From the sequence record NZ_CP035506.1: a stretch of 64,000 nt of DNA. The stretch is one strand, 5' to 3'. Made by a program: the position numbers and the translations under genes. The notes below the pieces were generated by a model that was not told the origin of the DNA, made no database searches, and saw nothing but the letters and a program-made list of their open reading frames with translations. Shown here in pieces: positions 2,896-32,890 of this stretch (its first letter is position 1; every line of letters starts with the position of its first letter). The stretch comes from a plasmid.

Positions 2896-3180
2896 GGGTC
2901 AGGACTCTTTCTCGGGTCATAGCCAGAACATGACGGTTGCTGCGAGAGCGATGGCGGAAAGGAAGACCTTGGGGCACCTGTCGTAGCGGGTTGCGACGCG
3001 GCGCCAGTCCTTCAATCGCCCGAACATGATCTCAATCCTGTTGCGGCGTCTGTAGCGGCGCTTGTCATACTTGATGGGTATGCCGCGCGATTTCCGGCCG
3101 GGGATGCAGGGTTTTATCCCCTTGTCCTTCAACGCTTCTCTGAACCAGTCGGCATCATAGCCGCGGTCCGCCAGCAGCCA
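2896..3180 (-). mobile_element. IS5-family (IS427-group) element, distal part of a copy split by a Tn3-family insertion
   Basis: Identical to the 3' end of the intact copy at 32040..32890, with terminal GGGTCAGGAC IR and a flanking TA. The OrfB C-terminal fragment is at 2917..3180. Confidence 0.8.
2917..3180 (-). pseudogene. IS5-family transposase OrfB, C-terminal fragment ([18 protein letters not shown]...), separated from its N-terminal part by the Tn3-family insertion
   Basis: The 71-aa ORF is identical to the C-terminus of OrfB at 32238..32870. Confidence 0.8.
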
Positions 3181-3218
3181 GGGGGCTGATGCCGGAGGGG
3201 GCAGGATCCTACGTTAAG
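3181..3218. repeat. Tn3-family terminal inverted repeat (left)
   Basis: GGGGGCTGATGCCGGAGGGGGCAGGATCCTACGTTAAG, inverted match at 6847..6884. Confidence 0.8.
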
Positions 3219-6099
3219 CCCTTTTCGGCCACTTGTATTCGCCAGTGAGCAGGACATGGGCCCAACCGAGGGGCGAGATGTGCGCCAGAAGGTTCGGCGA
3301 ACAGTCCAGGCCTTCGCGGCGGCGGCTGGCGACGGCCTGGCCGAGATGCTTGGTGTTCCAGTAGATGACGATCGCGGCAAGAAGGTTCAGCCCGGCCATG
3401 CGGAAGTGCTGGGCTTCGGAGGTGCGGTCCCTGATCTCGCCCTGGCGGCCGATGCGGAGAGCGTTCTTCAGCGCGTGGTGGGCTTCGCCCTTGTTCAGGC
3501 CGATCTGGGCGCGGCGCTGCATGCCGGCATCAAGCAGCCAGTCGATGATGAAGAGCGTCCGTTCGACCCGTCCGATTTCCCGCAAGGCGACCGCCAGTTC
3601 ATGTTGCCTCGGGTAGGACGCGAACTTCCGCAGGAGTTGGCTCGGCGGGATGGCTCCTGACGCCATGGTCGCCACGCTGCGCAGGATATCGGGCCAGTTC
3701 GCGGCGATGAGGGACTGCCTGATCTTGCCGCCGATCAGCCCTTTCAGCTCTTTCGGGCAGGCGGCCGGATCGAAGAGGTAGAGGCGCTTGGATGGCAGGT
3801 CGCGGATGCGGGGGATGAACTGGAAGCCCAGCAGGGCGGTGACGGCGAAGACGTGGTCGGTGAAGCCGCCAGTATCGGCATATTGCTCCCGGATCTTCTG
3901 CCCGGCGCTGGTCATCAGCAGGCCATCGAGGATGTAGGGCGCTTCGTTCACGGTAGCCGGGATGGTCTGTGTGGCGAAGGGACCGAACTGGTCGGAGACA
4001 TGGGTGTAGGCTTTCAGCCCGGGCTCATGGCCGTACTTGGCGTTGATCAGATTCATCGCCTCGCCCTGGCGTGTCGTCGGGAAGAACTGCCCGTCGCTCG
4101 ATGCGGTCTGTCCGGCGCCCCAGAACTGCGCCATCGGCAGTGCCGACTGCCCGTCGATCACCATGGCCAGGGCGCGGGCCATCGCCTCGCTTTCGACATG
4201 CCAGCGCGACAGGCGGGAAAGCTGGAAGAAGTCGTGCGTGTTCGTGGCCCCGGCCATCTTGCTGAGGCCGAGATTCAGCCCCTCGGCAAGCAACACGTTC
4301 AGCAGGCCGATCCGGTCCCTGCACGGCGCGCCGGTGCGCAGATGCGTAAAGGCCTCGGTGAAGCCAACCTCCGCATCCACTTCGAGCAGGAGATCGGTGA
4401 CCCTGACTTCCGGCAGGCGGCCATAGAGGTCGAGCACCAAGGCGTCGGCTTCCTCGGGAACCGCCGCAGCCAGCCGGTCGATTTTCAAGGTGCCGTCCTC
4501 GATGGAGCCTCCCGGCATGGTCCCGGCCCTAGCCGCACGCGCCAGGCGATGCAGGGCGTCAGCCATTCGGGCTTTGCGGTCGGCCAGCCAGGTTTCCGGC
4601 TCGAACGGCATGGCCAGCCTCGGCGTGGCGCGGGCGACGTCGACCGGGACCAGCGCTTCCTTCAGGTCGCCATACCTGCGCGAATGCGCCAGCCAGATAT
4701 CACCGGAACGGAAGGCTTCGCGCAGATGGAACAGGACCGCGACCTCCCATATCCGGTGCTCATCTTCGCCATCCAGGTGGCGGTGCCACTTCGAGGCGCG
4801 GCGCAGAAAGGTCAGCGGCCGGACGTCTGGTGTCGCCGTGCCCGCGATGACCGCGCTTGCCGCCAGCAGCGGCTCCGCCACGGGCGCGGCACAGATGTCG
4901 AGTACCCGCAGCATGCGCGGCGCATAACGCCGGAAGCGATGATATCCGTGACCGACATGCGCCAGCGGATCAGCGGCAAACGTGTCGGTCAGTTGAGCGG
5001 CCGTGGCGACAAGCCCCTTGAGGGATATCCAGCCGCCGGCATTGCCGACGGCCTCTTCGAGAGAGGCCCGATCCTCATGCGCTTCCAGGAGCGCCGCTCC
5101 CAATGTCCTGAAGGATTGCAGGGTGTCCTTCAGCGCCGATCTGGCATCGTCCATCCGGGCGTCACATCGTGACTTCGCCTCGCGCCAGGTCTTGCCCACG
5201 ATGCGGTCATGGGTCTCGACGACAGCGTCAGCAATGGCGCAGCGCCATTCCAGCGCGCAGACCGCAAGGATGGCGAGGCGGCGGTCACCCGAGATATCCC
5301 TCAGATCGCCTGCGAAGTATCGCTCTCCCTGCCGACGAAGGCGGGCAACGCGGTGTGGCGGCACATCCGCCAGAATGCCCCGGTCCAGCGCCAGCGCGCG
5401 CAGGTATTCCAGCCGGTCCAGAAGGCGGTTCATGTCGGCCGAATTCTGCCCGGTTTCGAACTGGCGCAGCCAGACGAACCGCGTGACCGAGCCGCCCGCA
5501 TCTTCGGTCAGGAGGGCATCGAGACGTGCTCGCATGGCATCGTCCAGCCGGCCACCGATCCGGGCGTCGATCCGGCGCTCGGCCGCGACAAGCGCCTCCG
5601 CGCAAAGCCGCTCGATGACCGTGATCCCCGGGAAGATGGTCTGGGTTGCCCGGCACTGCTCGACGAAGCGCCGTGCCAGATCCTCGTTCGACCGGGCGGC
5701 TTCGGCGGCATCCTCAAGCCATATTTTCAGGTCACGTGCCCCACGGCCCGCGAACATCTTGTAGCCATAGATCTCGCGCAAGGCGGCCAGGTGCTCATGC
5801 CGGGTCTCTTCCCGGGTCGCATACCCGGCCAGATCGTCAGGCCTCATCCCGAGCTGCGCTGCCAGAAAGCGCGTGACCGCCAGCGGAATGACCTCGCCCG
5901 GCGCCAGCAGCCGCCCCGGATACCGAAGCGCGCAGAGCTGCAGGGCGAAACCGAAGCGGTTGTGCGGACGACGACGGGCGCGGACGATCTCCAGATCGTC
6001 GTCTGCCAGCGTGTAGTGGCGCAGCATCGACGCGTCATCGGTCGGCAGGTCGAACAATGCCGCCCTTTGCCGGGCGGTCAGGATGCTGCGTCTTGGCAT
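3214..6099 (-). CDS. tnpA: Tn3-family transposase TnpA
   Basis: 961 aa. Tn3-family transposase length and composition. The stop lies within the terminal IR, as in Tn3-family elements. Confidence 0.85.
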   Translation of the reverse strand: MPRRSILTARQRAALFDLPTDDASMLRHYTLADDDLEIVRARRRPHNRFGFALQLCALRYPGRLLAPGEVIPLAVTRFLAAQLGMRPDDLAGYATREETRHEHLAALREIYGYKMFAGRGARDLKIWLEDAAEAARSNEDLARRFVEQCRATQTIFPGITVIERLCAEALVAAERRIDARIGGRLDDAMRARLDALLTEDAGGSVTRFVWLRQFETGQNSADMNRLLDRLEYLRALALDRGILADVPPHRVARLRRQGERYFAGDLRDISGDRRLAILAVCALEWRCAIADAVVETHDRIVGKTWREAKSRCDARMDDARSALKDTLQSFRTLGAALLEAHEDRASLEEAVGNAGGWISLKGLVATAAQLTDTFAADPLAHVGHGYHRFRRYAPRMLRVLDICAAPVAEPLLAASAVIAGTATPDVRPLTFLRRASKWHRHLDGEDEHRIWEVAVLFHLREAFRSGDIWLAHSRRYGDLKEALVPVDVARATPRLAMPFEPETWLADRKARMADALHRLARAARAGTMPGGSIEDGTLKIDRLAAAVPEEADALVLDLYGRLPEVRVTDLLLEVDAEVGFTEAFTHLRTGAPCRDRIGLLNVLLAEGLNLGLSKMAGATNTHDFFQLSRLSRWHVESEAMARALAMVIDGQSALPMAQFWGAGQTASSDGQFFPTTRQGEAMNLINAKYGHEPGLKAYTHVSDQFGPFATQTIPATVNEAPYILDGLLMTSAGQKIREQYADTGGFTDHVFAVTALLGFQFIPRIRDLPSKRLYLFDPAACPKELKGLIGGKIRQSLIAANWPDILRSVATMASGAIPPSQLLRKFASYPRQHELAVALREIGRVERTLFIIDWLLDAGMQRRAQIGLNKGEAHHALKNALRIGRQGEIRDRTSEAQHFRMAGLNLLAAIVIYWNTKHLGQAVASRRREGLDCSPNLLAHISPLGWAHVLLTGEYKWPKRA

Positions 6100-6264
6100 G
6101 GCGATCTTTCAGGAAATCGTGATGGACGACCGTCCGTAAGGGGATCGGTGAGCGGACATGTGTCGAGAGGGTTGGGAGCGGTAAGGAAACCGCACTCCAT
6201 CCTATCTCGTATAGATGGTACGATTTGATTCGCACATGCCGCCCCTTATCCGTACACTCGCTAC
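6100..6264. promoter_or_regulatory. Probable res site and divergent promoter region between tnpA and tnpR
   Basis: Intergenic position between the divergently transcribed transposase and serine recombinase, as in Tn3-family elements. Individual subsites were not resolved. Confidence 0.4.
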
Positions 6265-6852
6265 ATGACCGTGACCAAAATTGGCTATGCCCGCTGCTCC
6301 ACCGACCGTCAGGACCTGACAGCGCAACGTGCTGCCCTTGCAGAGCTTGGGGTCACCGTAGACCGCATCTACACGGACCATGGCCTGACCGGCACGAACC
6401 GCGCCCGCCCCGGTCTCGACCAAGCGCTTGCTGCTGTGCGAGAAGGCGACGTGCTGGTCGTGCCGAAACTCGATCGCCTTGCGCGCTCGGTCCCGGACGC
6501 ACGGGCCATCGCGGATCAGTTGGAAAAGAAGGGCGTCAAGCTTGCCCTCGGCGCATCGGTCTACGATCCGACCGACCCGATGGGAAAGATGTTCTTCAAC
6601 ATCCTCGCCACCTTCGCCGAGTTCGAGGCCGACCTCATCCGCATGCGTACCCGCGAAGGTATGGCCATCGCCCGAGCCAGGGGCAAGCTTCGGGGAAAGC
6701 AGCCGAAACTCTCGGAAAAACAACAAAAAGAACTGAGCCGGATGCACGCCTCCGGCGAATATTCCATCAGCGATCTCGCTGAGCTCTTTGCCGTCTCAAG
6801 ACCGACCGTCTACAGGACGCTGCAGCGAAATCCGGCCAAAACTCAGCCTTAG
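6265..6852 (+). CDS. tnpR: Serine recombinase / resolvase TnpR
   Basis: 195 aa. N-terminal catalytic motif YARCSTDRQDL with Ser. C-terminal HTH (SISDLAELFAVSRPTVYR). Confidence 0.85.
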   Translation: MTVTKIGYARCSTDRQDLTAQRAALAELGVTVDRIYTDHGLTGTNRARPGLDQALAAVREGDVLVVPKLDRLARSVPDARAIADQLEKKGVKLALGASVYDPTDPMGKMFFNILATFAEFEADLIRMRTREGMAIARARGKLRGKQPKLSEKQQKELSRMHASGEYSISDLAELFAVSRPTVYRTLQRNPAKTQP

Positions 6853-6884
6853 CGTAGGATTCTGCCCCCTCCGGCATCAGACCC
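6847..6884. repeat. Tn3-family terminal inverted repeat (right)
   Basis: Reverse complement GGGGTCTGATGCCGGAGGGGGCAGAATCCTACGCTAAG. Confidence 0.8.
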
Positions 6885-7259
6885 CAGCCAGTCCGCCTTT
6901 GGCAAGCTGCCCAGAAGTGCTGCGGCACCCGTGTAGTCACTGACCTGACCTGCGGTCACGAAGAAGCGGATTGGCCGGCCATCAGCATCGGTGACGGCGT
7001 GCAACTTGGTGTTCATGCCGCCCTTGGTTCGGCCGATCAATCGGCCCCTCTGATCGTTGGCTCCCCCTTTTTCGCTCGCAGGCTGGTCGCCGTGCGATGC
7101 GCCTTGAGATAGGTCGCGTCGATCATCACCGTCTCCGGAACTGCCGACTCTGCCGCCAGGCCGAGCATCATCCGGGCGAAGACACCCCTGTCGCTCCACC
7201 GCTTCCAACGGTTGTAGAGCGTCTTCGACGGGCCATACTCCTTGGGAGCGTCGCGCCAT
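6885..7259 (-). pseudogene. IS5-family transposase OrfB, N-terminal part truncated by the Tn3-family insertion (ends ...SLPKADWL then out-of-IS sequence)
   Basis: The ORF 6849..7259 matches the OrfB N-terminus and then diverges at the Tn3 IR. Confidence 0.75.
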
Positions 7260-7396
7260 CGCAAACCATTGCGATTAATGAAGATAATGCCGCTGAGAAC
7301 GCGCCGGTCATCAACACGCGGCTTGCCATGGCTCTTGGGAAAGAAGGGCTCCAGGCGCGACATCTGCGCCTCCGTCAGCCAAAAGAGGTTGCTCAT
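7037..7396 (-). CDS. IS5-family transposase OrfA
   Basis: The 119-aa ORF is identical to OrfA in the second copy (32101..32460). Confidence 0.8.
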   Translation of the reverse strand: MSNLFWLTEAQMSRLEPFFPKSHGKPRVDDRRVLSGIIFINRNGLRWRDAPKEYGPSKTLYNRWKRWSDRGVFARMMLGLAAESAVPETVMIDATYLKAHRTATSLRAKKGEPTIRGAD

Positions 7397-7606
7397 TCAT
7401 CGGTCTCCTTGCGGAGCCTGAATCATGCTGAAAGCGCAAGATCAATGGGTCCTGACCCTAAGCGCAAGCAGCTGAGTTTTATTAATAAACTAGGAAATAT
7501 TAAAAAAACCACTGTCACGCCGCATCGCAACATGTTAATAATTGACATAAGCGTGATGAACTCGGCTCCGGCCCCTGAGCCGATTGGCAGAATTATGGAG
7601 AGAAAC

Positions 7607-8158
7607 ATGTTGAAGAAGGTTGTTACGGCTGCCCTCATCGCCGCGGCCTCCGCTGCCTCGGCAAATGCTGCTGTCATTTATGCAAGCAGCGTGGTTTCGG
7701 CTAAACAGAAGGGCTATGTTGCGCCGGTGCGCAGCAACCCGATCGCAGCAACGGGTGCCGAGGATGGGAGCTTCTACTCCCTCGGCTTCGGTGGCAGCAT
7801 CGTGCTCGGCTTCTCGAGCCTGGTGAGCGGCGCTGGGAAGGTGTTCGAAGTCACCAACCTCCCGCGGGAAACCTATATCGAGAGCGCGATCTTCTCGGTC
7901 AGCCTCGACGGAAAATCCTGGACCACTCTGGGAGAATACTCCAACCAGGTCAGCTCGCTCTATTCGGCGACGCCGTTCCTCTTCCTCAAGGTGGAGGATA
8001 CCAGCCCGGTGATCGCCGGCCATGGCCGTGACGGCTATGACATCGACGCCATCGGCTTCGAAGAATATGTCGCCGCGGTTCCGCTTCCGGCGGCGGGCCT
8101 GCTGCTGATCGGTGGTCTGGCCGGCCTGGGTGCCATGAAGCGCCGCAAAGCGGCCTGA
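7607..8158 (+). CDS. VPLPA-CTERM (PEP-CTERM variant) sorting-domain protein, secreted; putative exosortase substrate
   Basis: 183 aa with a signal peptide (MLKKVVTAALIAAASAASANA). The C-terminus is VPLPAAGLLLIGGLAGLGAMKRRKAA (motif + TM + basic tail). An AT-rich promoter region lies upstream. Confidence 0.8.
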   Translation: MLKKVVTAALIAAASAASANAAVIYASSVVSAKQKGYVAPVRSNPIAATGAEDGSFYSLGFGGSIVLGFSSLVSGAGKVFEVTNLPRETYIESAIFSVSLDGKSWTTLGEYSNQVSSLYSATPFLFLKVEDTSPVIAGHGRDGYDIDAIGFEEYVAAVPLPAAGLLLIGGLAGLGAMKRRKAA

Positions 8159-8180
8159 GCCTCAAGAAACGATTTTCGGA

Positions 8181-8210
8181 ACGCCGGTGCGATTGCGCCG
8201 GCGTTTTGCT
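8181..8210 (+). terminator. Rho-independent terminator after the VPLPA-CTERM gene
   Basis: Hairpin acgccggtgc-gatt-gcgccggcgt followed by TTTT. Confidence 0.5.
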
Positions 8211-8271
8211 TTCCGGGTTGCTTCCAAGGTTTCCCTTGCATCCTGGGCGTTGCTGGATCACCTCTCAGGCA

Positions 8272-8960
8272 TCATGCGGCCCGACAAACCCCTTCCCGCC
8301 CGTCAGCGTCCCCGCTTCCCGCGGCGGGAGGGCATTCTGACAGACCGAATGCGCGCCATGCCGGTGGTGCTCGTGCTGTTCGTGGCCTGCCTGATCCCGG
8401 AACTCATTCTTTCCGGAGCTGATTACGGGCTTTGGGGCGATCCCGGCTGGCGGCTCTGGGCCTGGCAGCATGGCGGCTTCTGGACGGGGCTTCTGGGCAA
8501 CTGGCGGCCCAACTATGCCGCGCAACCCTGGCTCATGTTCCTGACCTACGGCTTCCTGCACGGGGGGGTGATCCATTTCGGGGTGAACATGCTCACCCTG
8601 TTCTCTCTTGCGCCACCGCTGGTGGAGCGGATGGGACAGGGACGGTTCCTGCTGCTCTACATGGCATCCATGATCGGTGGCGGTCTGGGCTTTGCGCTGC
8701 TGTCCCAGTCTCCGCAGCCGATGGTGGGGGCGTCGGGGGCGCTGTTCGGGCTGGCGGGCGCGGTCATGGCGCTGAGCTGGCAATATCTGCGGGCACGGGG
8801 GGAGAGCCTCAGGCCGGTGATCCGGTCCCTTCTGTGGCTTGCCGGGCTGAACCTGGTCCTCTGGTGGGCGATGAGCGGGATGTTGGCCTGGGAAACCCAT
8901 CTGGGTGGTTTCGTCGTCGGCTGGCTCATGGGCCTGTGGCTGGTGAGGGATGGGCGATAG
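8272..8960 (+). CDS. Rhomboid-family intramembrane serine protease
   Basis: Polytopic membrane protein with the GxSG catalytic motif (GASGALFGLAG) and a downstream His in a TM segment (THLGGFVVGW). The start codon is uncertain; ATG candidates are at 8187, 8272 and 8346. Confidence 0.65.
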
Positions 8961-9030
8961 CTGCATTGCAGCGACTTGTCATGCTCCGGCTCTGCTGGCA
9001 GGCTGCCATGACGACTTCGGAGAGATATCT

Positions 9031-10062
9031 TTGACGAAACATGTATTGGTCACTGGCGGAGCAGGGTATATCGGCTCCCATGCCTGCAAGGCATTACAGC
9101 GCGCCGGCTATGTGCCCGTCACCTACGATAGCCTGATTACCGGCTGGCAGCAGGCGGTGCGCTTTGGCCCGTTCGAGCAGGGCGACCTCGCCGACAGGGC
9201 GCGGCTGGATGAGGTCTTTGCCAGGTGGAGGCCGGTCGCGGTGATGCATTTCGCTGCCCTCTCCCAGGTGGGAGAGGCGATGCGGGAGCCGGGGAAATAC
9301 TGGCGCGGCAATGTCGCTGCCTCCCTCACCCTGCTGGAGGCGGCAGTGGCGGCGGGCTGCCTCGACGTGGTGTTCTCCTCCACCTGCGCGACCTATGGCG
9401 ATCAGGACGGCGTGGTACTGACGGAGGAGACCCCGCAGGCGCCGATCAACGCCTATGGCGCCTCCAAGCGCGCGATCGAGGACATGTTGCGCGACTTCGG
9501 CGCGGCCTACGGACTGCGCTCAGTGATCTTCCGCTACTTCAACGTGGCGGGAGCCGATCCGGAGGCGGAGGTGGGCGAGTTCCACGACCCCGAGACGCAT
9601 CTGATCCCGCTGATCCTTGAGGCGATCTCCGGCAGGCGCCCGGCGCTCACCGTCTTCGGCACCGATTACCCGACGCGGGACGGCACCTGCATCCGCGACT
9701 ATGTGCATGTCTCGGACCTGGTGGATGCCCATGTGCTCGGCGTGAAGGCGCTGGAAGCGGGACGGGTGGCGGATGGCGGGGTGGAGGTCTTCTGCCTCGG
9801 CTCCGGCAGCGGTTTCTCCGTCCGCGAGGTGATAGAGGAGGCCCGCCGCATCACCAATCGCGAGGTGCCGGTGGTCTTGGGGGAGCGGCGCGCGGGCGAT
9901 GCCGTGGCGCTGGTCTGCGGCAGCGAGAAGGCGGGGCGCGAACTGGGCTGGACCCCGGCCCGCTCCGACCTCGGCACCATGATCGAGGATGCCTGGCGGT
10001 CCTATCGCACCGTGGGCTGGGACAGGACGGTGGCGGGTGGCCCGGCGCTGGAGAATGCCTGA
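9031..10062 (+). CDS. galE: UDP-glucose 4-epimerase
   Basis: Rossmann motif VLVTGGAGYIGSH, SxnYxxxK signature (YGASK), and GalE-like motifs (DGTCIRDYVHV). The start codon is uncertain: TTG at 9031, or ATG at 8950 giving an N-terminal extension. Confidence 0.8.
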   Translation: MTKHVLVTGGAGYIGSHACKALQRAGYVPVTYDSLITGWQQAVRFGPFEQGDLADRARLDEVFARWRPVAVMHFAALSQVGEAMREPGKYWRGNVAASLTLLEAAVAAGCLDVVFSSTCATYGDQDGVVLTEETPQAPINAYGASKRAIEDMLRDFGAAYGLRSVIFRYFNVAGADPEAEVGEFHDPETHLIPLILEAISGRRPALTVFGTDYPTRDGTCIRDYVHVSDLVDAHVLGVKALEAGRVADGGVEVFCLGSGSGFSVREVIEEARRITNREVPVVLGERRAGDAVALVCGSEKAGRELGWTPARSDLGTMIEDAWRSYRTVGWDRTVAGGPALENA

Positions 10063-10348
10063 GCCGGGCGCGTGATGCTGCTGCGCCCCTCCGGCACGAC
10101 CCTGCCCGGAGACGGCGAAAGAGCGACGGGCCCCGCCACGGGGCATGGCCCCTCCCGTCCGGTCGGTGCACCCGGTTCCATGCCGCCAAGCAGCCTCTCC
10201 TGCCAGCAGAGCTCCGCCGAAGTGCGGGCAGGGGATGTCACAATCGCGATTGGCTGTGCCGGCGCGGGTTTTCTTGGCGGGATGACGTGTATATTCACCT
10301 CCCGAGGGGCGGGACACCCGCGGGATTCGGAACAATAAAAGGAACGAC

Positions 10349-11425
10349 ATGCGCCAGCATGCCATCTTCTTCTGCCTCCCGCTGATCCTGACTGCCTGCA
10401 CGGATGGTTTCGTCTATTTCCCCGTCGATGAAAGCGGCCAGGAGCGTGCGGCGCAGGAGGAGAATGTCGATATCATCCGTCTGACCCCGGATAATATCGC
10501 AAGCTTCGCTCAGCCCACCAAGGGCCATGTCGCCACCAGCATGCCGCGGGGCGGGCGCTGGAACTATCTTGTCGGGCCGGGCGACATTCTTGACATCATC
10601 GTCTTTGATCATCCGGAGCTGACGCTCCCTGCCGGGCCGCAGCGGGCGGCGGAGGATTCCGGTTTTCGCGTGCAGGCGGACGGCAGTTTCTTCTACCCCT
10701 TCATCGGCCAGGTCCGGGCCGAGGGCCGCCCGCTCGAGCAGATCCGCGAGGAGGTGACGCGGCGGCTGGCCGAATACGTCCCGGAGCCGCAGCTCGAGGT
10801 GCGTGTCGCCGCCTTCAACTCCCAGAGCGTCGTCGTCTCGGGCGAGGTGAAGATGCCGCAGCGGCTGGAGATGACGACCAGTCCCCGCACGCTGCTGGAA
10901 GCGATCAGCGAGGCGGGCGGTTTCACCGAGAATGCCGACATGCGCCGTGTCCGCGTCCAGCGTGGCAGCCAGTTCTATGACGTGGATGTGGAGGGCTATC
11001 TCTCCGCCGGAATGGCCGCCAACAACCCGATGCTCCGGTCGGGGGATGTGGTCTCCGTGCTGCGCAAACGCGCGCAGGAGGCCTATCTGATGGGCGAGAT
11101 ATCGGAGGCGGGGCCGGTCGACCTGTCGCTCGACACCGTCTCTCTCACCCAGGCGCTGGCGCTGCAGAAGGGTGTGCGCTCCACCCGGTCCGATGCGCGC
11201 GGCGTCTTTGTCTTCCGCAACGTGCGGGGGCGCATGACCGTCTTCCAACTCGAGACGAGTTCCCCCACCGGGCTGCTGCTCGGCACGCGCTTCGTGCTGG
11301 AGCCGGGCGATGTCGTCTATGTCACGCGCAACCCGCTGCAACGCTGGAACGACACGATCTCCAAACTGCTGCCGACGGTGCAGGCGACGAATGTGGTCGC
11401 GGCGACCGACAATGCGCTGAACTGA
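10349..11425 (+). CDS. wza: Polysaccharide export outer-membrane lipoprotein (Wza/GumB/ExoF family)
   Basis: Lipobox LILTAC. Poly_export-like region (PGDILDI.VF...). The repeated soluble ligand-binding beta-grasp (SLBB) domain pattern is typical of Wza. Confidence 0.8.
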   Translation: MRQHAIFFCLPLILTACTDGFVYFPVDESGQERAAQEENVDIIRLTPDNIASFAQPTKGHVATSMPRGGRWNYLVGPGDILDIIVFDHPELTLPAGPQRAAEDSGFRVQADGSFFYPFIGQVRAEGRPLEQIREEVTRRLAEYVPEPQLEVRVAAFNSQSVVVSGEVKMPQRLEMTTSPRTLLEAISEAGGFTENADMRRVRVQRGSQFYDVDVEGYLSAGMAANNPMLRSGDVVSVLRKRAQEAYLMGEISEAGPVDLSLDTVSLTQALALQKGVRSTRSDARGVFVFRNVRGRMTVFQLETSSPTGLLLGTRFVLEPGDVVYVTRNPLQRWNDTISKLLPTVQATNVVAATDNALN

Positions 11426-11439
11426 TCCTGGAAGAGCCC

Positions 11440-15640: not shown

Positions 15641-15658
15641 GCCGCAAGGAGCGGCGTA

Positions 15659-16822: not shown

Positions 16823-16840
16823 GGGATATCCGGGCTGGGA

Positions 16841-17845: not shown

Positions 17846-18074
17846 CGCTTTCCCATGCTTGGCCTCCGGGGCGGGGTGCCGCCGGTGGCGGTACTATATG
17901 CAGCCCCGCTGCCGAGGTCGAGCCGACAGGGCGTCACGACCGGATGAGGACCTGCGCGCCGGAGCGGGCGGTCACGGTGCATCTGCGCCTGACGATTTTG
18001 AGGCACCGGAGCGGCGCGCCCCCGAAGCAGGAGGAAGGAGGCCGATGCGACTGGCCGTGTGCATCCCTGCTTCA

Positions 18075-23971: not shown

Positions 23972-25258
23972 TCACGTTGGTGCCTGCTGGTGCAGGAAGC
24001 GCTCGTTCATCCGTCTGAGGATGATACTGCCCAGGCCCGTTCCTGCGGAAATGGCCGCCACCGTGCCGTAGGGCCCGAAGATTTGCCCGATCACGAACCC
24101 CAGCGCGAAAGTCAGGGCAAGGGTGGCAAGGGCCGTCCAGATATTGTGGCGGAGATTTCCCGTCACGAAGCCTATCGATGCACCCGGCGCATTGAGGAGG
24201 GCTGTGAGAATCCCCAGGGTCAGGATCACCGTGAACGCCCAGTAGCGCAGATCCACGTGCCCGAGCCAGAGCCAGGAGGCAACCGGTGCACCGAGGCAGA
24301 TCGCCACGCCGACCGCGACTGTCACCTGCGCGGTGCGGCGCAGGATACGGCGATAGAGGGCACGGCTTGCTTCCGGATCGGTCTTGGTCTGATAGCTGAA
24401 CGCGGGCATGGAGGCCTGAATGCTGGCCATCACGACGGAGCGGGGCAGCATGACCGTCTTGTAGGCCAGTTCGTAGATCCCCTGAAGCGCGGCATCGCCG
24501 AACAGGCTGACGAGCAGTTTCGTGGCAGGCTCGAAGAAGTTGGACAGCGTGCTCGCCACCTGAGCGCGCAGGCTGTAGCCGAGCATCTCGCGGAACCGCT
24601 CGCGGTTGAAGTGATACGGCACCCACCCGGCGGAAGGCACCCAGTGATGCAGCAGAAGCCACCCGACAATCGCCAGGGCGAGGTGCATCGCGATCTGGGC
24701 CCAGGCCAGTCCCAGCAGGCTGAAGGCCGGAATGAGCAGGAGCGCCAACAGAAGCTGCAGGATGTTTCCCGCCACGGAAAGCCGGGCCGCCACATAGCCG
24801 GCATGAAGGCCCTGAAGACTGCCCAGAACGATCCAGGACAGGTTGCTCAGAAAAGACAGAAGAAACAGCCAGGGAAGCAGCGCTTCCCCCTCCGCCAGAT
24901 GATCGGCCGAGACAAGATAAGGCAGGGCCCATGTCAGGATGAGCCAGCCAAGAAGATTCAGCAGTCCGAAGATGGCGCTGTTGGAAAGTATCCCCGTTTC
25001 GATCGTATCCCGGATGACTTCCTGCTCATGATCCAGATCATGCCGTGCCACGAACCTCAACGTGGCCGTGGCAAGGCCCAGATCGCCAAGCCGGATCAGC
25101 GAGGTCCAGGCAAGCAGGAGAGACCATGTTCCGACAGCCTCGATCCCGCTGCGCTCGATCAGGATGCGGTAGGTCAGGAAGGTGAGAGCCAGGCTGACGG
25201 CGAAGGAGAACGCCTGATGGAGGACATTCTTCCTCAGGTTGAAGCGGGCTTCCGTCAT
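23972..25258 (-). CDS. wzx: Polysaccharide flippase, Wzx / MOP-superfamily transporter
   Basis: 428 aa with about 12 TM helices. Typical Wzx topology and EPS-locus context. Confidence 0.65.
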   Translation of the reverse strand: MTEARFNLRKNVLHQAFSFAVSLALTFLTYRILIERSGIEAVGTWSLLLAWTSLIRLGDLGLATATLRFVARHDLDHEQEVIRDTIETGILSNSAIFGLLNLLGWLILTWALPYLVSADHLAEGEALLPWLFLLSFLSNLSWIVLGSLQGLHAGYVAARLSVAGNILQLLLALLLIPAFSLLGLAWAQIAMHLALAIVGWLLLHHWVPSAGWVPYHFNRERFREMLGYSLRAQVASTLSNFFEPATKLLVSLFGDAALQGIYELAYKTVMLPRSVVMASIQASMPAFSYQTKTDPEASRALYRRILRRTAQVTVAVGVAICLGAPVASWLWLGHVDLRYWAFTVILTLGILTALLNAPGASIGFVTGNLRHNIWTALATLALTFALGFVIGQIFGPYGTVAAISAGTGLGSIILRRMNERFLHQQAPT

Positions 25259-25590: not shown

Positions 25591-26370
25591 CTAGAGCGGC
25601 AGGATTCCCGCGCGAAAGGCAAGATTGCGCAAGTCATTCCTCATCCGCCTGCCGACCCCCTGGGGCGGCAGGCCCTGCCCTGAGGAACCCGACACGCCTT
25701 GCAGGCGCGGGGCGGGGCACATCACATAGCTGCGGGGAGGAAGGCCCTCCAACCCGTCGCGATAGCTGTGCTCAAGGTAATATCCCGCCGGATCGTCGAC
25801 ATCGCGGTAGCGATCGCGAAGATGGCGGTCGAAGAAATCGCGCGCGACAAGATAGAAGCGCGTATCGATGCTGTCGATCCGGGTGCGGCCCCAGAGATTG
25901 AAGCCAGCCTGCCCATTCCACCCCCGAAGACAGGCGGAAAAGTTACTGAGCCACAGCTTCCCCGTGCATTTGGCGAAAGCGGGGCTGTTTTGCAGGATCC
26001 TGCTGTGGCCGAGGGCATGAAGGACGATCTCGCCCTCGCCATAGCCCTTCCCTCGCCGGGCAACCATTTCCTGATCGTTGCGAAAGGAAAGGGCTTCATA
26101 CCGCATATGGGGATGGGCCTGGCGCAGGGGAGCGAGATGCGGCTCCAGATCGTAACCCGAACCGTCGCAGATCACGATTTCCTCTACACCCGGCGTCCTG
26201 CTCCATTCCGCCAGACTGTCGAGATGAGCATCAAGGCGCTGTTTCGCATCGGTCAGGTTGGTCAGGGGCGCAGAGACATGGATGGCCGATGTCAGCAGGA
26301 GGGGAGGAGAAGGCGTCACAGGGTCGGCTCCGGTTGCGCTGCCGGGCAGAACCTGCCCCGGACCCTCCAT
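25591..26370 (-). CDS. Hypothetical protein (EPS-locus associated); start uncertain
   Basis: Coding-like ORF with segments EIVICDGSGYD...GYGEGEI. No family recognised. The upstream in-frame extension to 26547 is low-complexity. Confidence 0.3.
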   Translation of the reverse strand: MEGPGQVLPGSATGADPVTPSPPLLLTSAIHVSAPLTNLTDAKQRLDAHLDSLAEWSRTPGVEEIVICDGSGYDLEPHLAPLRQAHPHMRYEALSFRNDQEMVARRGKGYGEGEIVLHALGHSRILQNSPAFAKCTGKLWLSNFSACLRGWNGQAGFNLWGRTRIDSIDTRFYLVARDFFDRHLRDRYRDVDDPAGYYLEHSYRDGLEGLPPRSYVMCPAPRLQGVSGSSGQGLPPQGVGRRMRNDLRNLAFRAGILPL

Positions 26371-26425: not shown

Positions 26426-28824
26426 TCAGGCGAAGAAGGGATAGTTGCAGACCGCATCGCCGACCAGAAGATGCATGCCTTCCAGAAGAAACTCCTCATC
26501 GCGGGACGTTTCGAACACGAGGCCGATGTGGAAGGAGGACACCTCATGCGGAACGAAGCATGTCAGCCGGGTGATCCCGAGACCGGTGTCGCTCCGGGTA
26601 ATGCCCTGCTCGGGAGCGGCGGTCGCCGCCGCCTGGGCAGAGGCGGGATCCGCATTCGCCCAGTAGGCGGCGCGCACCAGCCGTCCCTGTCCTGAACCAT
26701 TCCACGCGCCGATGGCGGCCATCGTCACATAGCCTGCGTCCAGGGGCGCAAGGATCTGGAGCGGCACTTCCAGCGTCACCGCCTGACTGGCCGAACCACC
26801 GGCGAGATGCAGAAGGCTTGTCTGCTCGCCGGTCAGGCCGGATACCCGGGGGGAAAGGCGCAGGGTTCTGGAAAGGGATGTGAGACGCTCGGGCGGGATG
26901 CCGTTTCGCCAGGGGGACAGCCTGCCGGTGCGAAGCTGGCCCTGCTCCACGAGAGCTGTATCGAAAGCGGGATTTCGCCCGATGTAGTTGCCGCGAAAGA
27001 GCGCGACCTGCCAGGGGTTCGTCACGGCACGGAACCCGGCCGCCTGGCCCAGGATATTCAGGTTGCGCAGGGTAACCAGGCCGTTCCTGTTATCCACCAG
27101 ATGACGGCAGGTTTCATTGCCGATGAAGAACTTTGTCCCCTCGACGGCAAGCGGGGTGCCGTTCAGGACATAGGGGGCGCCTTTGTCTATCGTTGCGCGA
27201 AAGACCACGGGATAGTCGATATGTTCGATCCATCCTCCCAGCCACTGGACGGTGGAGAAGCTCCTCGCCTCCACGACCGCGCAGCTGAACTGTTCGGCCG
27301 AACAGTTCTCGAATGTCCAGCTCGCCCCGCAGCGCAATATATAGGCCGCCGGGAAATCCTTATCCGCGGCGCAGTGGTAGTGAGTGGTGTTCGTGACCTT
27401 GTTCAGGTTGACGGGGCAGCCGGTCGAGTCGGACCATGCCTCGAAAACCCTGAACGCCTGCCCGCCTCCCTGCCTTCCCCCGAAGAAGCCGAAGCGGCAG
27501 TCGTCGATCGACCAGTAGATCGGCACGCAGCGGAAGAGGAGCTGGAATTCGTTCGATATCTCCAGACGACGGATGCGGAAGCCGCCGGTGTATTTCTTCT
27601 GCGCGGGGCTGTCGTAGAAGATCACGCCGGGGGCGGCTGCCTGTGCGAAGAAGCCCTCCAGAACCGCCGCATAGATCGGTTTTTCATCCCGGTCACGGAA
27701 GATGGCCCCCCCTTTTACCGTGCAGACGAGGCCGTAGCGCCCCGCCTGAAGCTCTCCCCCGGGCCTTCGATGCGCATGCCGGTGACGGGCTGGATCTCGT
27801 TGACCGCATAGGTATGCGGCCCGAGGCGCACCTTGCCGCGGGCGATGGCGCGTGTCAGGGCCGCGCTGTCATCCGTCCGCCCGTCGCCCGCTGCCCCGAA
27901 GGCGTCGAGATCCACGTAGCCATCCCGGTCCGCCTCCACCGCCAGCGCCGTTCCCCCCGCTGTGACCAGGTCGGGGGCGGCCGTCCGGTCTGCGGCCAAG
28001 GTGACATAGCCGAAGCTCCCGGCCCGCAGCCTGTCGCCCGGATCGAACGGATGCCGCGCCGCGCGGAGGCTGGCCACATCGGGGTAATGCGCCCCCGAGA
28101 GGAGCCGCCAGCGGCTGCCATCCTCATGGCGCGTGGCGCCCGCCGGGTCGCGCCGGTAAACCAGTTCCAGCCCGTCCCCCATGACCCGGGCGAGGCGGGT
28201 TGCGGGATTGAGGGGCGCGGAGAGGAACTCCGCCTTGCCGGGCCAGGGCATGGGCGTGGCGATCAGGCCCGCCTGCTCCAGCATCGCGGCAGCGGTCTCC
28301 GCCGTCTCCACCGTGGTCCGGCCCCAGTCGAGCCCGCCCGTCTCCGTCCCCACCAGCGGGCGCCCCGGCTGCGGATGGAGCGGCGCCACCGGCATGTCGA
28401 GCCTGAGCGCCGCATCCAGCCTCCGCGTCTGGTCCTGCAAGGCCCGCACGATGAGGTCGAGCTGTGCCTCCAGCCCGTGCCGCCCCCCGCTCCGCCCCCA
28501 GCCCTGCGCAAGCTGGCTCTGCCGGAAGGGCAGAAGCAGACCCCCTGCCAGCCGCTCCGCCGTTTCGGGCGCGAGCAAAAGCTCCCCCGTCGTAGAGGAA
28601 GCGGGCGGGATCAGCCGGAACTCCGCCTCCGACAGTTCGATCCGTGTATCGTGATGCAGGACCAGCACCCCGATATCCCCCGCCTCATAGGGATGCGGGA
28701 TGGCATAGGGGCCGGGACCGGAGATGCCCTGCACCGGCGAGGGGACGAAGTTCGGAACGGCCACGACGCGCCTCCTGGGGGCAGACCCTGGCTGGAGCCT
28801 TCCAGTCTTGGTGGTTTGGGTCAA
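26426..28824 (-). pseudogene. Large secreted protein with a pectate-lyase-fold right-handed beta-helix domain (candidate polysaccharide depolymerase or C5-epimerase); one -1 frameshift in a G5 run
   Basis: The two minus-strand ORFs 27715..28824 and 26426..27625 are contiguous if one G is added at the homopolymer near 27756..27760 (plus strand C5). Pectate_lyase_3-like motif DLDAFGAAGDGRTDDSAALTRAI. Confidence 0.6.
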
Positions 28825-28926: not shown

Positions 28927-30021
28927 TCAGGAGGTGGAAGTGGCCTGTGGCCCGGAGCTTTCCCGCACGGGGCTCCGCAAGCAAAACTCCTTCACGCGGG
29001 CATAGGTTGCGGCCAGTTCGTGCCGCGGTGCGTTGAAGAGTTTCTGCTGGTCGGCGGAGGCGAGTTCCGCACCGCGCAGGCGATCCCGCGCGAAGGTGGA
29101 TTTCGCCCGCAGCCGGTAGAGCAGGGTCTTGTAGCCGGCAAAGCGCCGGGCTTCCGATTGTATCCGTGCCCATTCCCGCGGATTGTCGGACCTGTCCTTC
29201 GCCAGCACATAGGCGCGGTTGAGGATATGCATGACCCCCATCGCCCGCCCCGCGTCCCGCCGTTCGGGGGCCTTGTGGTGATAGATGAACGCCTGCGTCG
29301 CAGCCACGACGCAAAAATTGTCGAGCGTCCGCAGGGAGGCGTCGATATCCTCGAACAGCGCGTAACGGCCCAGTCCTTCATCGAACTGCAGGGCACGGAT
29401 CACCTCTGTCCGGAAGGACATGCGGAAGCCGGTCATGTAGGGAACATGGATCGCCTGCACCTCTTCCAGCCAGTCCGGCTGCCGCAGGCGCGCAAGTTTC
29501 TGCGCGGCAAGGGTCAGGAAAGGGTCGGGGATCAGCCGGTCCTCCATCCGCCGCCGGAGGGGCAGAAGGGCAAGGGACATCGCATCGCTCCGCCGGCGGC
29601 GGTAGCCGGGGCGGTCGCTGGCCCCGGCGATGCCGGCGCTTTCATGAGGGGCATGGGCTTCCGCCGCGCAGACCCCCCCGATCAAACCCTCGGTATCCCG
29701 CTCATAGACCCGCATGATGTGATCCATCGCATCGGGATAGAGAAGGGAATCGTCATCGGGAAACAGCACGACTTCGCCGGTGACATGGCGCAGGCCGAGG
29801 TTGCGCTGCGCCGCCGCGCCCGGTCCGCTGCGGATGTAGCGCACAGGCAAGGGAGCCGCGGCCGCGAACTCTTCGACAAGGCTGCGGACGGCCGCTTCAT
29901 CATCACTTGAATCAACGACAATGATGTCCTGAGGCGGACGGGTCTGGCCGAGCAGCATCGGTATGCTGAGCTTCAACGCTTCCAGCCGGTTCCGGGTCGC
30001 AATCACGCAGGAGTAGTTCAT
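28927..30021 (-). CDS. Glycosyltransferase family 2
   Basis: SCVIATRNR...IIVVDSSDD...FPDDDS motifs. Paralog of 58782..59831. Confidence 0.7.
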   Translation of the reverse strand: MNYSCVIATRNRLEALKLSIPMLLGQTRPPQDIIVVDSSDDEAAVRSLVEEFAAAAPLPVRYIRSGPGAAAQRNLGLRHVTGEVVLFPDDDSLLYPDAMDHIMRVYERDTEGLIGGVCAAEAHAPHESAGIAGASDRPGYRRRRSDAMSLALLPLRRRMEDRLIPDPFLTLAAQKLARLRQPDWLEEVQAIHVPYMTGFRMSFRTEVIRALQFDEGLGRYALFEDIDASLRTLDNFCVVAATQAFIYHHKAPERRDAGRAMGVMHILNRAYVLAKDRSDNPREWARIQSEARRFAGYKTLLYRLRAKSTFARDRLRGAELASADQQKLFNAPRHELAATYARVKEFCLRSPVRESSGPQATSTS

Positions 30022-30171: not shown

Positions 30172-31023
30172 TCAGTCCAGAAATTCGATGTTCGGAACAT
30201 GGGTGAGGCTGGTCCGATAGATCGCGCGAATCTTGTAATCGTTGCCGCTGTACAGTTTCACTTTGCGTCCAACGATCGCCGCACCGATGCCGATATGTAA
30301 CCGGTCGGTCACGATTGTTTCATACCGGGCGATCTCGCGCAGGAAGTCGTCGCCGTTGGACATGTGATTGCCAAGCGCGCTGATGTCAATGTTGCCCGCG
30401 GCCTTCTCGAACCGATGAGAGGATTCCCGATCGCGCCGGTAGGCGTAGCCTACAGGGGTTTCCGGGGGGCCGAAATCGTACTTCAGTCCCTTGGCCATCA
30501 GGTAGAGCGCCATATCATGACAGAAAAGCGACCGCGGGCAGGCTTCCTTGCTCTCATATTCATCTCGGCGAAACAGGGTTCCCCGCACTTTTGGTGCCTG
30601 ATGGTATAAAGTGGAGGGTAAAACGATAAGATTGTCTGTGAAATAGGAAATAAAGGCACAGATATCGCCAGCGTGACGATAGTTGTGCCCCCAGGCGGAC
30701 CCGCCCGAGTAGATGAAGAGATACCGGTTCCTGCGGGCGAGATAGGGCGCCAGGAAATAGCGGGCCGATCCCTTGCCGAGATGAATTTCGGTATGGGGAA
30801 TCCGGTAGTCATACAAGAACCGCTTCGCCCCGTGACGGATCAGCCCATCCCCGAAGTTGCCGGGATTGGGCAGGAAAATGACCTGCCGCCCCGCCGATTT
30901 CTCCTGGATGACACGGGCCAGCGTATCGAAGGCAGGCAGGAGATGGCTGCTGGAAACTTCTGCAGGCGCTTTGGCCAGGGGGGTGACGCGCTCCGAGGAG
31001 GTGGGAAAAGGCAAGAGATTCAT
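30172..31023 (-). CDS. Polysaccharide pyruvyl transferase (ExoV/GumL/WcaK family)
   Basis: PNPGNFGD motif. About 280 aa with family-like architecture. Lower GC than the surrounding genes. Confidence 0.65.
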   Translation of the reverse strand: MNLLPFPTSSERVTPLAKAPAEVSSSHLLPAFDTLARVIQEKSAGRQVIFLPNPGNFGDGLIRHGAKRFLYDYRIPHTEIHLGKGSARYFLAPYLARRNRYLFIYSGGSAWGHNYRHAGDICAFISYFTDNLIVLPSTLYHQAPKVRGTLFRRDEYESKEACPRSLFCHDMALYLMAKGLKYDFGPPETPVGYAYRRDRESSHRFEKAAGNIDISALGNHMSNGDDFLREIARYETIVTDRLHIGIGAAIVGRKVKLYSGNDYKIRAIYRTSLTHVPNIEFLD

Positions 31024-31254: not shown

Positions 31255-31968
31255 TCAGGCGGCGGGCTGACCGGTCGCCACATGGCCGTCATGGGCAAGC
31301 ATCCGCCAGATCATGCCCCCGATCACCGCGCCGAGCAGAGGCGCCAGCCAGAAGAGCCACAGCTGACCAAGCGCCCACCCCCCGGCAAAGAGCGCCTGGC
31401 TGGTTGAGCGCGCCGGGTTGACCGATGTGTTGGTCACCGGAATGGCGATCAGGTGGATCAGCGTCAGGGCCAGCCCGATCGCGATTCCGGCGAAGCCCGC
31501 GGGGGCACGCGGATGGGTCGCACCAAGGATGATGATGACAAAGAAGGCGGTCAGGATCGTTTCGATCAGGAACGCCGACATCATCGAGTAGCCCCCGGGC
31601 GAATGGTCGCCATAGCCGTTTGCGGCAAAGCCGCCGATCTCGAAGCCCGGCTTGCCCGTTGCAATCAGATAGAGTGCGGCGGCGGCGAGAATGGCCCCTG
31701 CAAGCTGCGCCACGACATAGGGCACGACATGGGCGGAGGGAAATCGCCCCGCGACCGCCAGCCCGACAGAAACCGCGGGGTTGAAATGCCCGCCCGAGAT
31801 CCAGCCGACAGCATAGACCATGGTCAGCACGGTCAGCCCGAAAGCGAGAGCCACGCCCGCGAACCCGATCCCGAGTCCGGGAAACGCCGCGGCAAAGATG
31901 GCACTGCCACAACCGCCAAAAACCAGCCAGAAGGTTCCAAGCCCTTCGGCAACCAGCTGCTTCTGCAT
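31255..31968 (-). CDS. aqpZ: Aquaporin Z
   Basis: 237 aa. Near-collinear with AqpZ, including both NPA boxes ([16 protein letters not shown]) and [23 protein letters not shown]. Confidence 0.9.
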
Positions 31969-32039
31969 GATGGAGAACTCCCGAAATTGGGTAGACGTAC
32001 TGAAAACCTCGTTAAGTTTGCACCCGCTTATCCCTTTAG

Positions 32040-32890
32040 GGTCAGGACCCATTGATCTTGCGCTTTCAGCATGATTCAGGCTCCGCAAGGAGACCGATGA
32101 ATGAGCAACCTCTTTTGGCTGACGGAGGCGCAGATGTCGCGCCTGGAGCCCTTCTTTCCCAAGAGCCATGGCAAGCCGCGTGTTGATGACCGGCGCGTTC
32201 TCAGCGGCATTATCTTCATTAATCGCAATGGTTTGCGATGGCGCGACGCTCCCAAGGAGTATGGCCCGTCGAAGACGCTCTACAACCGTTGGAAGCGGTG
32301 GAGCGACAGGGGTGTCTTCGCCCGGATGATGCTCGGCCTGGCGGCAGAGTCGGCAGTTCCGGAGACGGTGATGATCGACGCGACCTATCTCAAGGCGCAT
32401 CGCACGGCGACCAGCCTGCGAGCGAAAAAGGGGGAGCCAACGATCAGAGGGGCCGATTGATCGGCCGAACCAAGGGCGGCATGAACACCAAGTTGCACGC
32501 CGTCACCGATGCTGATGGCCGGCCAATCCGCTTCTTCGTGACCGCAGGTCAGGTCAGTGACTACACGGGTGCCGCAGCACTTCTGGGCAGCTTGCCAAAG
32601 GCGGACTGGCTGCTGGCGGACCGCGGCTATGATGCCGACTGGTTCAGAGAAGCGTTGAAGGACAAGGGGATAAAACCCTGCATCCCCGGCCGGAAATCGC
32701 GCGGCATACCCATCAAGTATGACAAGCGCCGCTACAGACGCCGCAACAGGATTGAGATCATGTTCGGGCGATTGAAGGACTGGCGCCGCGTCGCAACCCG
32801 CTACGACAGGTGCCCCAAGGTCTTCCTTTCCGCCATCGCTCTCGCAGCAACCGTCATGTTCTGGCTATGACCCGAGAAAGAGTCCTGACC
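32040..32890 (+). mobile_element. IS5-family (IS427-group) insertion sequence, intact copy
   Basis: Imperfect terminal IRs GGGTCAGGAC(C/T)C at both ends, flanking TA dinucleotides. orfA/orfB arranged for a -1 programmed frameshift. Confidence 0.85.
32101..32870 (+). CDS. IS5-family transposase OrfAB (orfA 32101..32460, orfB 32238..32870; -1 programmed frameshift at A-AAA-AGG)
   Basis: OrfA carries the HTH. OrfB carries the DDE region (..[10 protein letters not shown]...). A slippery AAAAAGG motif lies in the overlap. Confidence 0.8.

Follow-up and report, generated by a model that had tools for sequence, protein, structure and literature searches.

The window, by which is meant the whole stretch of 64,000 nucleotides analysed here (plasmid sequence record NZ_CP035506.1), carries near its start the xrtD gene (980-2584, plus strand) for an exosortase that is specific for VPLPA-CTERM proteins and fused to an EpsI domain; it scores 710 bits against TIGR04152 (cut-off 400) and also matches PF09721 and PF11984. 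Contigs from other assemblies (L001, L102) show that a separate cluster upstream ends with xrtD, and a spacer of 458 bp, the landing place of the left of two insertion sequence (IS) copies, lies between it and the neighbouring substrate gene. The latter encodes a VPLPA-CTERM protein of 183 aa (7607-8158, plus strand; 39.7 bits against TIGR03370, cut-off 25.35), with its start codon 145 bp from the IS. An exosortase with at least one substrate close by is what distinguishes an XrtD/VPLPA-CTERM sorting system, and both are found here. Further VPLPA-CTERM-type C-terminal tails occur at 44963-45724 and 61558-62064, each on the minus strand.

Next to the substrate gene, a native polysaccharide locus extends over 8274-31968, as delimited by Pfam matches and by gene calls on near-identical contigs. 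It begins with genes for a rhomboid protein (8274-8960) and a galE-like epimerase (9031-10062), followed by wza (10349-11425), wzb (11440-11916), wzc (11913-14223) and a GT4 priming transferase (14516-15640). A GT1 gene (15659-16822) and an EpsG/Wzy-like gene (16841-17845) come next on the minus strand, and after them an unknown gene (17944-18693), a GT2 gene (18753-19502), gmd (19740-20858), an fcl-like gene (20869-21825) and a second GT1 gene (21832-23040). The remainder lies on the minus strand and includes a GT2 gene (23087-23917), wzx (23972-25258), an unknown gene (25591-26370), an unknown 779-aa gene (26426-28765), a further GT2 gene (28927-30021), a pyruvyl transferase gene (30172-31023) and finally aqpZ (31255-31968). 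The three ORFs of wzc and the split 779-aa gene were considered as pseudogenes and rejected as such; they arise from single-nucleotide deletions relative to otherwise near-identical contigs, three of the four within G/C runs, and the frameshifts in both genes are probably consensus errors.

Two inverted copies of an IS5-family element

A repeat search of the window revealed two inverted pairs, each 100% complementary, of which one joins 6885-7461 to 32036-32612 (577 nt) and the other 2894-3181 to 32606-32893 (288 nt). Perfect matches of these lengths cannot have arisen by chance, and the same search found no third copy of the IS in the 64-kb window. The right copy, copy B, is an intact element of 854 bp (32038-32891, plus strand), as delimited by its sequence and by profile matches, whereas the left copy, copy A, is split into two fragments on the minus strand. 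The right-end fragment (2896-3180) retains the 3' part of orfB and the IRR and is 100% identical to the copy B arm at 32606-32893; the left-end fragment (6886-7459; PF13340) retains the IRL, orfA (7037-7396) and the 5' part of orfB and is 100% identical to 32036-32612. On copy B the two arms overlap by 7 nt, made up of the TGGCT duplication described below and one chance base on either side. Every end of the two copies is bordered in the sequence by TA, namely at the outer end (2894-2895, half of the duplicated target) and inner end (7460-7461) of copy A, and at the inner end (32036-32037, 68 bp upstream of the aqpZ start codon) and outer end (32892-32893) of copy B.

The terminal inverted repeats (IRs) start GGGTCAGGAC, and the element as a whole runs from GGGTCAGGAC to GTCCTGACCC. 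In copy B, orfA (32101-32460, plus strand) covers positions 3-115 of NF033580, the profile for IS5 family transposases, while orfB, in the -1 frame and ending at 32870, covers positions 102-258 and matches PF01609 and PF13586. The NF033580 scores are 168 bits for orfB and 109.6 for orfA, against a cut-off of 110, and the Pfam matches of the IS comprise PF01609, PF13340 and PF13586. The overlap of the two ORFs includes GCGAAAAAGGGGG; their -1 arrangement is seen directly, and the frameshift itself is predicted from the sequence. The reading frames are intact in copy B, and copy A is cut inside the DDE domain by a Tn3-family element.

The IS resembles the IS427 group in size, two-ORF organisation and TA target, and by these three features it is a putative member. 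In the IS427 group, as described by Dziewit et al. 2012 (PMC3281130), the two overlapping ORFs yield a whole DDE transposase only when joined by a -1 frameshift. The IS here is organised in the same way. The IS427-group elements captured in Paracoccus spp. are likewise of about 0.85 kb, with short terminal IRs and hosts among the Paracoccaceae. The nearest copies in a plasmid collection, from Thioclava and Paracoccus yeei, share 84-87% identity and are annotated as IS5 family transposase. Since the collection contains no copy at 95% identity or above (best match 87%), the IS may be an unnamed isoform.

The insert in orfB of copy A is a cryptic transposon of the Tn3 family, 3705 bp in length (3181-6885, minus strand). 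It encodes tnpA (3214-6099, minus strand; PF01526, PF13700), which reaches 1062.7 bits with the Tn3 family transposase profile NF033527 (cut-off 500), and a putative serine recombinase/resolvase, a 195-aa ORF (6265-6852, plus strand), for which serine recombinase models matched below their cut-offs only. The repeat search gave IRs of 38 bp that are 92% complementary, and the 5-bp target duplication TGGCT flanks the element in the sequence at 3176-3180 and 6886-6890. A large Tn3-type DDE transposase, IRs of about 38 bp and a 5-bp duplication together place the insert in the Tn3 family. Copies with 100% identity to it occur on the Haematobacter massiliensis OT1 plasmids pOT1-7, pOT1-8 and pOT1-9, where the genes are annotated as Tn3 family transposase and recombinase family protein. 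By description it can be likened to Tn3434a and Tn6122 of Paracoccus, which are cryptic transposons with transposition functions only and 38-39-bp IRs (PMC3281130); the insert carries only tnpA and a putative tnpR, divergently arranged, between 38-bp IRs starting GGGG, with a 5-bp duplication. Unlike them, it is nested in another IS.

Much of this had been described in the first-pass annotation. Its assignment of two identical, inverted copies to the IS5 family, the left one disrupted by a Tn3-family element, is borne out by the profile scores and by the perfect 577- and 288-nt arms, and the coordinates that it gave (2896..7458 and 32040..32890) were right to within a few bases. The genes that it listed inside the bracket agree with the content of 7462-32035 in profile searches. 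The exosortase gene does lie outside the bracket, as had been pointed out, but this position has no special meaning, since xrtD ends a separate upstream cluster and the IS landed in the spacer that follows.

Empty sites and polymorphic states in related sequences

In the H. massiliensis type strain CCUG 47968, contig JGYG01000013.1 has both insertion sites empty, with a single TA at each. At the left site the contig (alignment L013) has window positions 1-2895 directly followed by 7459, the two parts overlapping by the 2-bp TA, and stays collinear up to 17146 at 99.2% identity; at the right site (alignment L092, running from 42514 down to 21271) it joins 32039 to 32892. The window has 4125 bp between these two compared parts and the type strain 4128 bp, and two metagenome contigs (L122, L123) span this stretch collinearly. 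The type strain order, from xrtD, the VPLPA-CTERM gene, rhomboid, galE and wza-wzb-wzc to aqpZ and CLC, is the order and orientation of the window, at about 99.2% identity. For the CLC protein, the type strain's start does not hold in the window. In H. missouriensis (L014) the left site is empty as well, and in Falsirhodobacter flavus (L015) xrtD is still followed by the rhomboid gene. G+C within the block, at 0.63-0.68, is no different from that of the flanks, and a scan of G+C across the window gave no compositional sign of a foreign block. Since the IS-free type strain has the block in the same place, order and orientation, the block is native and its orientation in the window ancestral.

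Metagenome contigs document further states of the two sites. In sample ERZ27295626 the left site is empty (L102) while the right IS is present with native flanks (L097), and the right IS with native flanks is also crossed by L100, L101 and L115. Another contig (L113) has the left IS in the ancestral arrangement but carrying an IS110 element in place of the Tn3 insert. Five contigs in total run through an IS into flanks that both belong to these two sites, and every one of them has the ancestral junctions, although these are short-read assemblies, which a minority inverted subpopulation could escape. The short-read contigs of several samples terminate precisely where an IS ends or where the Tn3 element joins (L001-L010, L103, L105, L107, L108, L117). 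Such exact breaks, together with the contigs that cross an IS, indicate that the arrangement in the window exists in nature. In another metagenome, a contig (L098, the same record as L114) has the aqpZ side of the right IS joined to an inverted flank at window position 44966, which hints at IS-mediated rearrangement nearby.

Insertion, inversion or a mobile block

The best explanation, to which we assign a probability of roughly 0.88, is that one active IS5-family element made two independent and very recent simple insertions at the edges of a native polysaccharide locus of H. massiliensis. The window would derive from this species, probably from strain OT1. The left copy would have entered an intergenic TA in the spacer between xrtD and the VPLPA-CTERM substrate gene, and the right copy an intergenic TA 68 bp upstream of aqpZ. 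We infer that the right copy probably came earlier and the left copy later, an order drawn from two contigs of one metagenome, possibly from different strains. The left copy would then have lost its function when the Tn3-family element entered the region coding for the DDE domain and duplicated 5 bp of target. The IS is presumably active at present, and its insertions may affect expression of aqpZ or of the VPLPA-CTERM gene; promoter and terminator consensus scans found no promoter-like sites around the right IS or the empty left site.

A second, though improbable, reading is that the identical IS copies act as sites of homologous recombination, so that the 24.6-kb block would occur in both orientations, and aqpZ and the VPLPA-CTERM gene would trade upstream regions. 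Arms of 577 and 288 nt in inverted orientation are what an invertible segment calls for, and as perfect repeats they would be adequate RecA substrates. Moreover, both inner genes point away from the ISs, and inversion would swap their 5' contexts with no gene broken. The substrate for IS-mediated inversion between inverted copies, identical repeats of several hundred bp, is thus present, but no inversion product of this segment was seen; the window, the type strain and the five IS-crossing short-read contigs all show the ancestral orientation. The junction in L098 is the product expected from IS-mediated inversion of a different segment, but it could be a chimeric assembly through a repeat. 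In addition, a promoter swapped in by inversion would be separated from its new gene by 0.85-4.6 kb of IS. No dedicated invertase or short recombination sites are present, the only recombinase nearby being the putative Tn3 resolvase within copy A. Being a palindrome and the same at every IS end, the TA would bear no trace of a past inversion followed by re-inversion. Intramolecular replicative transposition, by which the second inverted copy and an inversion would arise in one step, was also considered and rejected, the segment not being inverted relative to the IS-free relatives.

It is more doubtful still that the IS pair flips the 24.6-kb block or occasionally moves it as a 30-kb unit from one to another of the many replicons of this strain; were this true, surface polysaccharide, the VPLPA-CTERM protein or aquaporin would be expressed unevenly across the population.

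Least credible among biological readings is a functional composite transposon, in which the ISs brought the EPS block or could move a 30-kb unit by their outer ends. Two inverted copies of one IS around passenger genes are certainly reminiscent of Tn10, Tn5 and the Paracoccus transposon Tn6097, and, as in Tn10 and Tn5, the outer ends are intact; copy B retains its reading frames, with transposase function predicted, and TA stands at both outer ends. The inner ends are also TA, however, and as every insertion of this IS makes a TA duplication, the outer TAs do not tell whether the unit moved as a whole. Each IS has its own TA pair, one sample has the right IS only, and the transposase of copy A is broken by the Tn3 element. 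The passenger DNA lies in situ and collinear without ISs in CCUG 47968, with precise empty sites and in the same orientation, and so was not delivered by the ISs. Neither the plasmid collection nor the contig look-ups showed a second location of the 2896-32891 unit. The window searched against the plasmid collection gave distant matches only and so lies on none of the eight OT1 plasmids in it, a set without pOT1-6. In contrast to Tn10, Tn5 and Tn6097, then, the block is native and older than both ISs, one IS is inactivated, and there is no sign that the unit moved.

An assembly artefact, with one IS copy or the segment orientation a misjoin of the long-read assembly, is hardly conceivable, for although the single-base deletions in G/C homopolymers of the window look like long-read consensus errors, independent short-read metagenome assemblies stop precisely where each IS copy begins and ends and where the Tn3 element joins, and several contigs cross the ISs with the flanks seen in the window.

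Compared with its IS-free relatives, the bracketed 24.6 kb is therefore judged to have been neither delivered by the ISs nor inverted, and to lie in its ancestral place and orientation. The composite-transposon proposal of the first-pass annotation is contradicted by the identical gene order in CCUG 47968 without ISs, the very finding that it had named as decisive against itself. Its suggestion of an invertible segment stands insofar as the repeats could support RecA-dependent inversion, but not as regards the orientation, which is ancestral, or the IS-crossing contigs, none of which is inverted. The TA that it proposed to look for at both outer ends is there, and at the inner ends too.

Meaning for the polysaccharide locus of H. 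massiliensis

The arrangement is an ordinary insertion polymorphism, rather than a mobile or flipped block, and is of little importance beyond annotation. Before a gene block between two ISs is called a composite transposon, relatives should be examined. The practical points are modest, namely a right IS 68 bp upstream of aqpZ and an insert of 4.6 kb upstream of the VPLPA-CTERM gene. For H. massiliensis, the elements documented are an IS5-family element that is presumably active, nested IS110 insertions and a cryptic Tn3-family element that its replicons share, and together they create structural polymorphism around the XrtD-linked polysaccharide locus.

Two copies of an IS5-family element

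An intact IS5-family element of 854 bp, with the ends GGGTCAGGAC ... GTCCTGACCC, occupies 32038-32891 on the plus strand of the window, and a second copy on the minus strand (2896-7459) is split by a Tn3-family element. Repeat searches of positions 1-40000 and of the whole window matched the two as perfect inverted pairs, one of 577 nt (6885-7461 against 32036-32612) and one of 288 nt (2894-3181 against 32606-32893), and found no third copy in the window. When the junctions were read from the sequence, TA was present on both sides of each copy, at the inner ends as well as at the outer ends where it had been proposed to look. In the right copy, orfA (32101-32460, plus strand) matches PF13340, while orfB, in the -1 frame and ending at 32870 (plus strand), matches PF01609 and PF13586. 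The overlap of the two frames includes GCGAAAAAGGGGG, and jointly they cover positions 3-115 (orfA) and 102-258 (orfB) of the IS5-family model NF033580. Paracoccus elements of the IS427 group, within the IS5 family, are described as having this same two-ORF frameshift organization (PMC3281130). Both copies are intergenic, the left one lying 310 bp past the stop codon of xrtD and 145 bp ahead of the start codon of a VPLPA-CTERM gene, and the right one preceding the start codon of aqpZ by 68 bp.

The Tn3-family element (3181-6885; 3705 bp) has 38-bp terminal repeats that start with GGGG and are 92% complementary by repeat search. It is flanked by a 5-bp target duplication, TGGCT, at 3176-3180 and 6886-6890, which is why the 577-nt and 288-nt arms overlap on the intact copy. 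It carries a transposase gene (NF033527, 1062.7 bits) and, running divergently, a gene for a putative 195-aa serine recombinase. Three plasmids of Haematobacter massiliensis OT1 carry the element in full at 100% identity. Because the insert cuts the IS5-family transposase in its DDE domain, the left IS is unable to make its own transposase. The perfect inverted pairs, the junctions, and the NF033580 and NF033527 matches together confirm the observation, made in the first-pass annotation, of two identical inverted copies with the left one disrupted by Tn3.

The bracketed polysaccharide genes and their surroundings

Pfam and NCBIfam matches, together with gene calls on near-identical contigs, agree with the genes originally listed for the ~24.6 kb of polysaccharide (EPS) genes between the copies. 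These encode a 183-aa VPLPA-CTERM protein (TIGR03370), a rhomboid protease and a GalE-like epimerase, Wza, Wzb (LMW phosphatase) and Wzc, a GT4 priming transferase, an EpsG/Wzy-like protein, Gmd and an Fcl-like enzyme, several GT1 and GT2 glycosyltransferases, a Wzx-type flippase, two unknown proteins, a pyruvyl transferase and AqpZ. The exosortase does lie outside the bracket; it is XrtD (TIGR04152, 710 bits, cut-off 400), and H. massiliensis CCUG 47968 and H. genomosp. 1 share it at 100% protein identity. Taken with the plasmid copies of the Tn3-family element, this assigns the window to H. massiliensis or one of its very near relatives, and probably to strain OT1. On contigs that extend upstream of window position 1 (L001, L102), a larger exosortase cluster ends with xrtD, which accounts for the gene's place outside the bracket. 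The other genes of that cluster encode a Bac_transf priming transferase, an 831-aa TPR protein, a Poly_export protein and a 493-aa unknown protein, along with chain-length and ATPase genes.

Within the block, 1-nt deletions at 12331, 13020, 13854 and 27761 leave wzc (11913-14223) as three ORFs and a 779-aa gene of unknown function (26426-28765, minus strand) as two; the comparison is with the type strain and with metagenome contigs whose identity is elsewhere as high as 99.99%. G/C runs of five contain three of these deletions, and all four are probably long-read consensus errors rather than pseudogenes. The H. massiliensis OT1 assembly was made from PacBio RSII reads (PMC6498234).

Beyond the block, a second polysaccharide cluster (50290-60728) contains MurB- and MurA-like genes, GT2s, a UDP-glucose dehydrogenase, an epimerase and a flippase, one GT2 being a paralogue of that at 28927-30021 by repeat search. 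A small gene at 61558-62064 (minus strand) encodes a further PEP-CTERM/VPLPA-type protein, and a gene at 62454-63542 (minus strand) matches plasmid-type replication initiator protein A (PF10134, 331 bits), with ~77% DNA identity to the RepA genes of Cereibacter sphaeroides 124-kb plasmids. The window may on this account be plasmid DNA; the plasmid collection searched included every OT1 plasmid except pOT1-6 (CP035506).

Empty sites in IS-free relatives

Species-representative genomes were scanned with an XrtD query, and 10 kb on each side of the gene was compared with the window by BLAST. On contig JGYG01000013.1 of the H. massiliensis type strain, window 1-2895 (98.8% identity) abuts 7459-17146 (99.2%) with a 2-bp overlap corresponding to a single TA. 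The left site is also empty in H. missouriensis, and in Falsirhodobacter flavus the rhomboid gene still follows xrtD at a short distance. A look-up with the AqpZ protein led to the same type-strain contig, where window 32039 abuts 32892 within a match spanning 42514 down to 21271. The stretch between these two type-strain regions measures 4128 bp, versus 4125 bp in the window, and is spanned by two metagenome contigs (L122, L123) collinear with the window. The type-strain empty sites (...ggcgctctctTAagcgcaagc... and ...atcccttTAgacaagatg...) match the window flanks exactly, and together with this collinearity they indicate that the whole block is native, in its ancestral place and orientation. 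Its G+C is no different from that of the flanks. Each IS is a simple insertion with its own TA duplication.

The first-pass annotation had proposed that the pair might mobilize the block as a composite transposon. That reading fails, since the IS-free type strain keeps the same order and orientation, the very outcome named against it; delivery of the block by composite transposition is ruled out, and its future mobilization by the ISs is conceivable but finds no support.

Two other differences lie close to these sites. At the spot equivalent to window 2895/7459, after xrtD, H. genomosp. 1 H2240 carries a different 3.3-kb insert (L012 11917-15254), on either side of which ~90 bp of target sequence is directly duplicated. 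The insert contains an IS1380-like transposase gene, a truncated ORF and a gene for one more protein whose C-terminal tail is of the VPLPA type; the spacer after xrtD seems to be a hot spot for insertions. The second difference is at 33344/33345, between the right IS and the CLC gene, where the window lacks a ~304-bp AT-rich segment found in the type strain (L092 9183-9486) and several metagenome contigs.

Insertion polymorphism and probable origin of the arrangement

Exact-protein look-ups of metagenome contigs, followed by BLAST mapping to the window, showed both IS sites to be polymorphic. L102, L104 and L106 carry an empty left site, and in several samples contigs break within ~30 bp of the IS ends (L001-L005, L007, L009, L010, L103, L105, L107, L108). 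In sample ERZ28620688 the contigs of both arms end exactly at the Tn3 junction (L006, L117), and the window arrangement is therefore real and recurrent. The right IS is crossed with native flanks by L100, L101 and L115, and also by L097 of sample ERZ27295626, where the left site is empty (L102); the combination in this one sample suggests that the right insertion is older than the left. L113 spans the left IS, likewise in ancestral arrangement, with an IS110-family element inside the IS instead of the Tn3 element.

That IS110-family element (342-aa transposase) is nested in IS5-family copies on L113, L114, L120 and L121, from different metagenomes, at a position identical in left-site, right-site and third-location copies (window 32556/32557), which suggests that the IS110-family element either targets this IS in a sequence-specific way or has spread together with it as one unit. 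In other samples the IS5-family element has a third target, the TA at 44965-44966, at which the 43119-44975 ORF and a VPLPA-CTERM gene (44963-45724, minus strand) meet with their 3′ ends. One flank of this TA is joined to the aqpZ side of the right IS (L098) and the other to non-window DNA (L112), junctions that could be a real rearrangement or chimeric assembly. An IS21-family element at 46628-49098 (istA 46628-48208; istB 48205-49098, PF01695) is another insertion polymorphism, since L112 lacks 46515-49147.

With a probability of almost nine in ten, an active IS5-family element would have inserted twice, independently and recently, at the edges of the block, and the Tn3-family element would then have entered the left copy. 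Conceivably, the inverted repeats could also serve as a RecA-dependent substrate for flipping the block. Since aqpZ and the VPLPA-CTERM gene, the two inner genes, are both oriented with the ISs behind them, flipping would exchange their upstream contexts. However, a swapped promoter would need to read through 0.85-4.6 kb of IS, and none of the metagenome contigs mapped showed an inverted product, with aqpZ connected through an IS to the xrtD flank or the VPLPA-CTERM gene to the CLC flank. L098 and L114, which are one record, connect the right IS on its aqpZ side to window 44966 in inverted orientation. Either that strain has undergone an inversion involving a third IS copy, or the assembly is chimeric. 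An assembly artefact behind the IS arrangement is unlikely, as independent metagenome contigs show the same junctions. The original observation is thus real and its interpretation only partly right, composite delivery having been refuted; for the two recent insertions favoured here, the biology is that of ordinary IS insertion polymorphism around a native locus.
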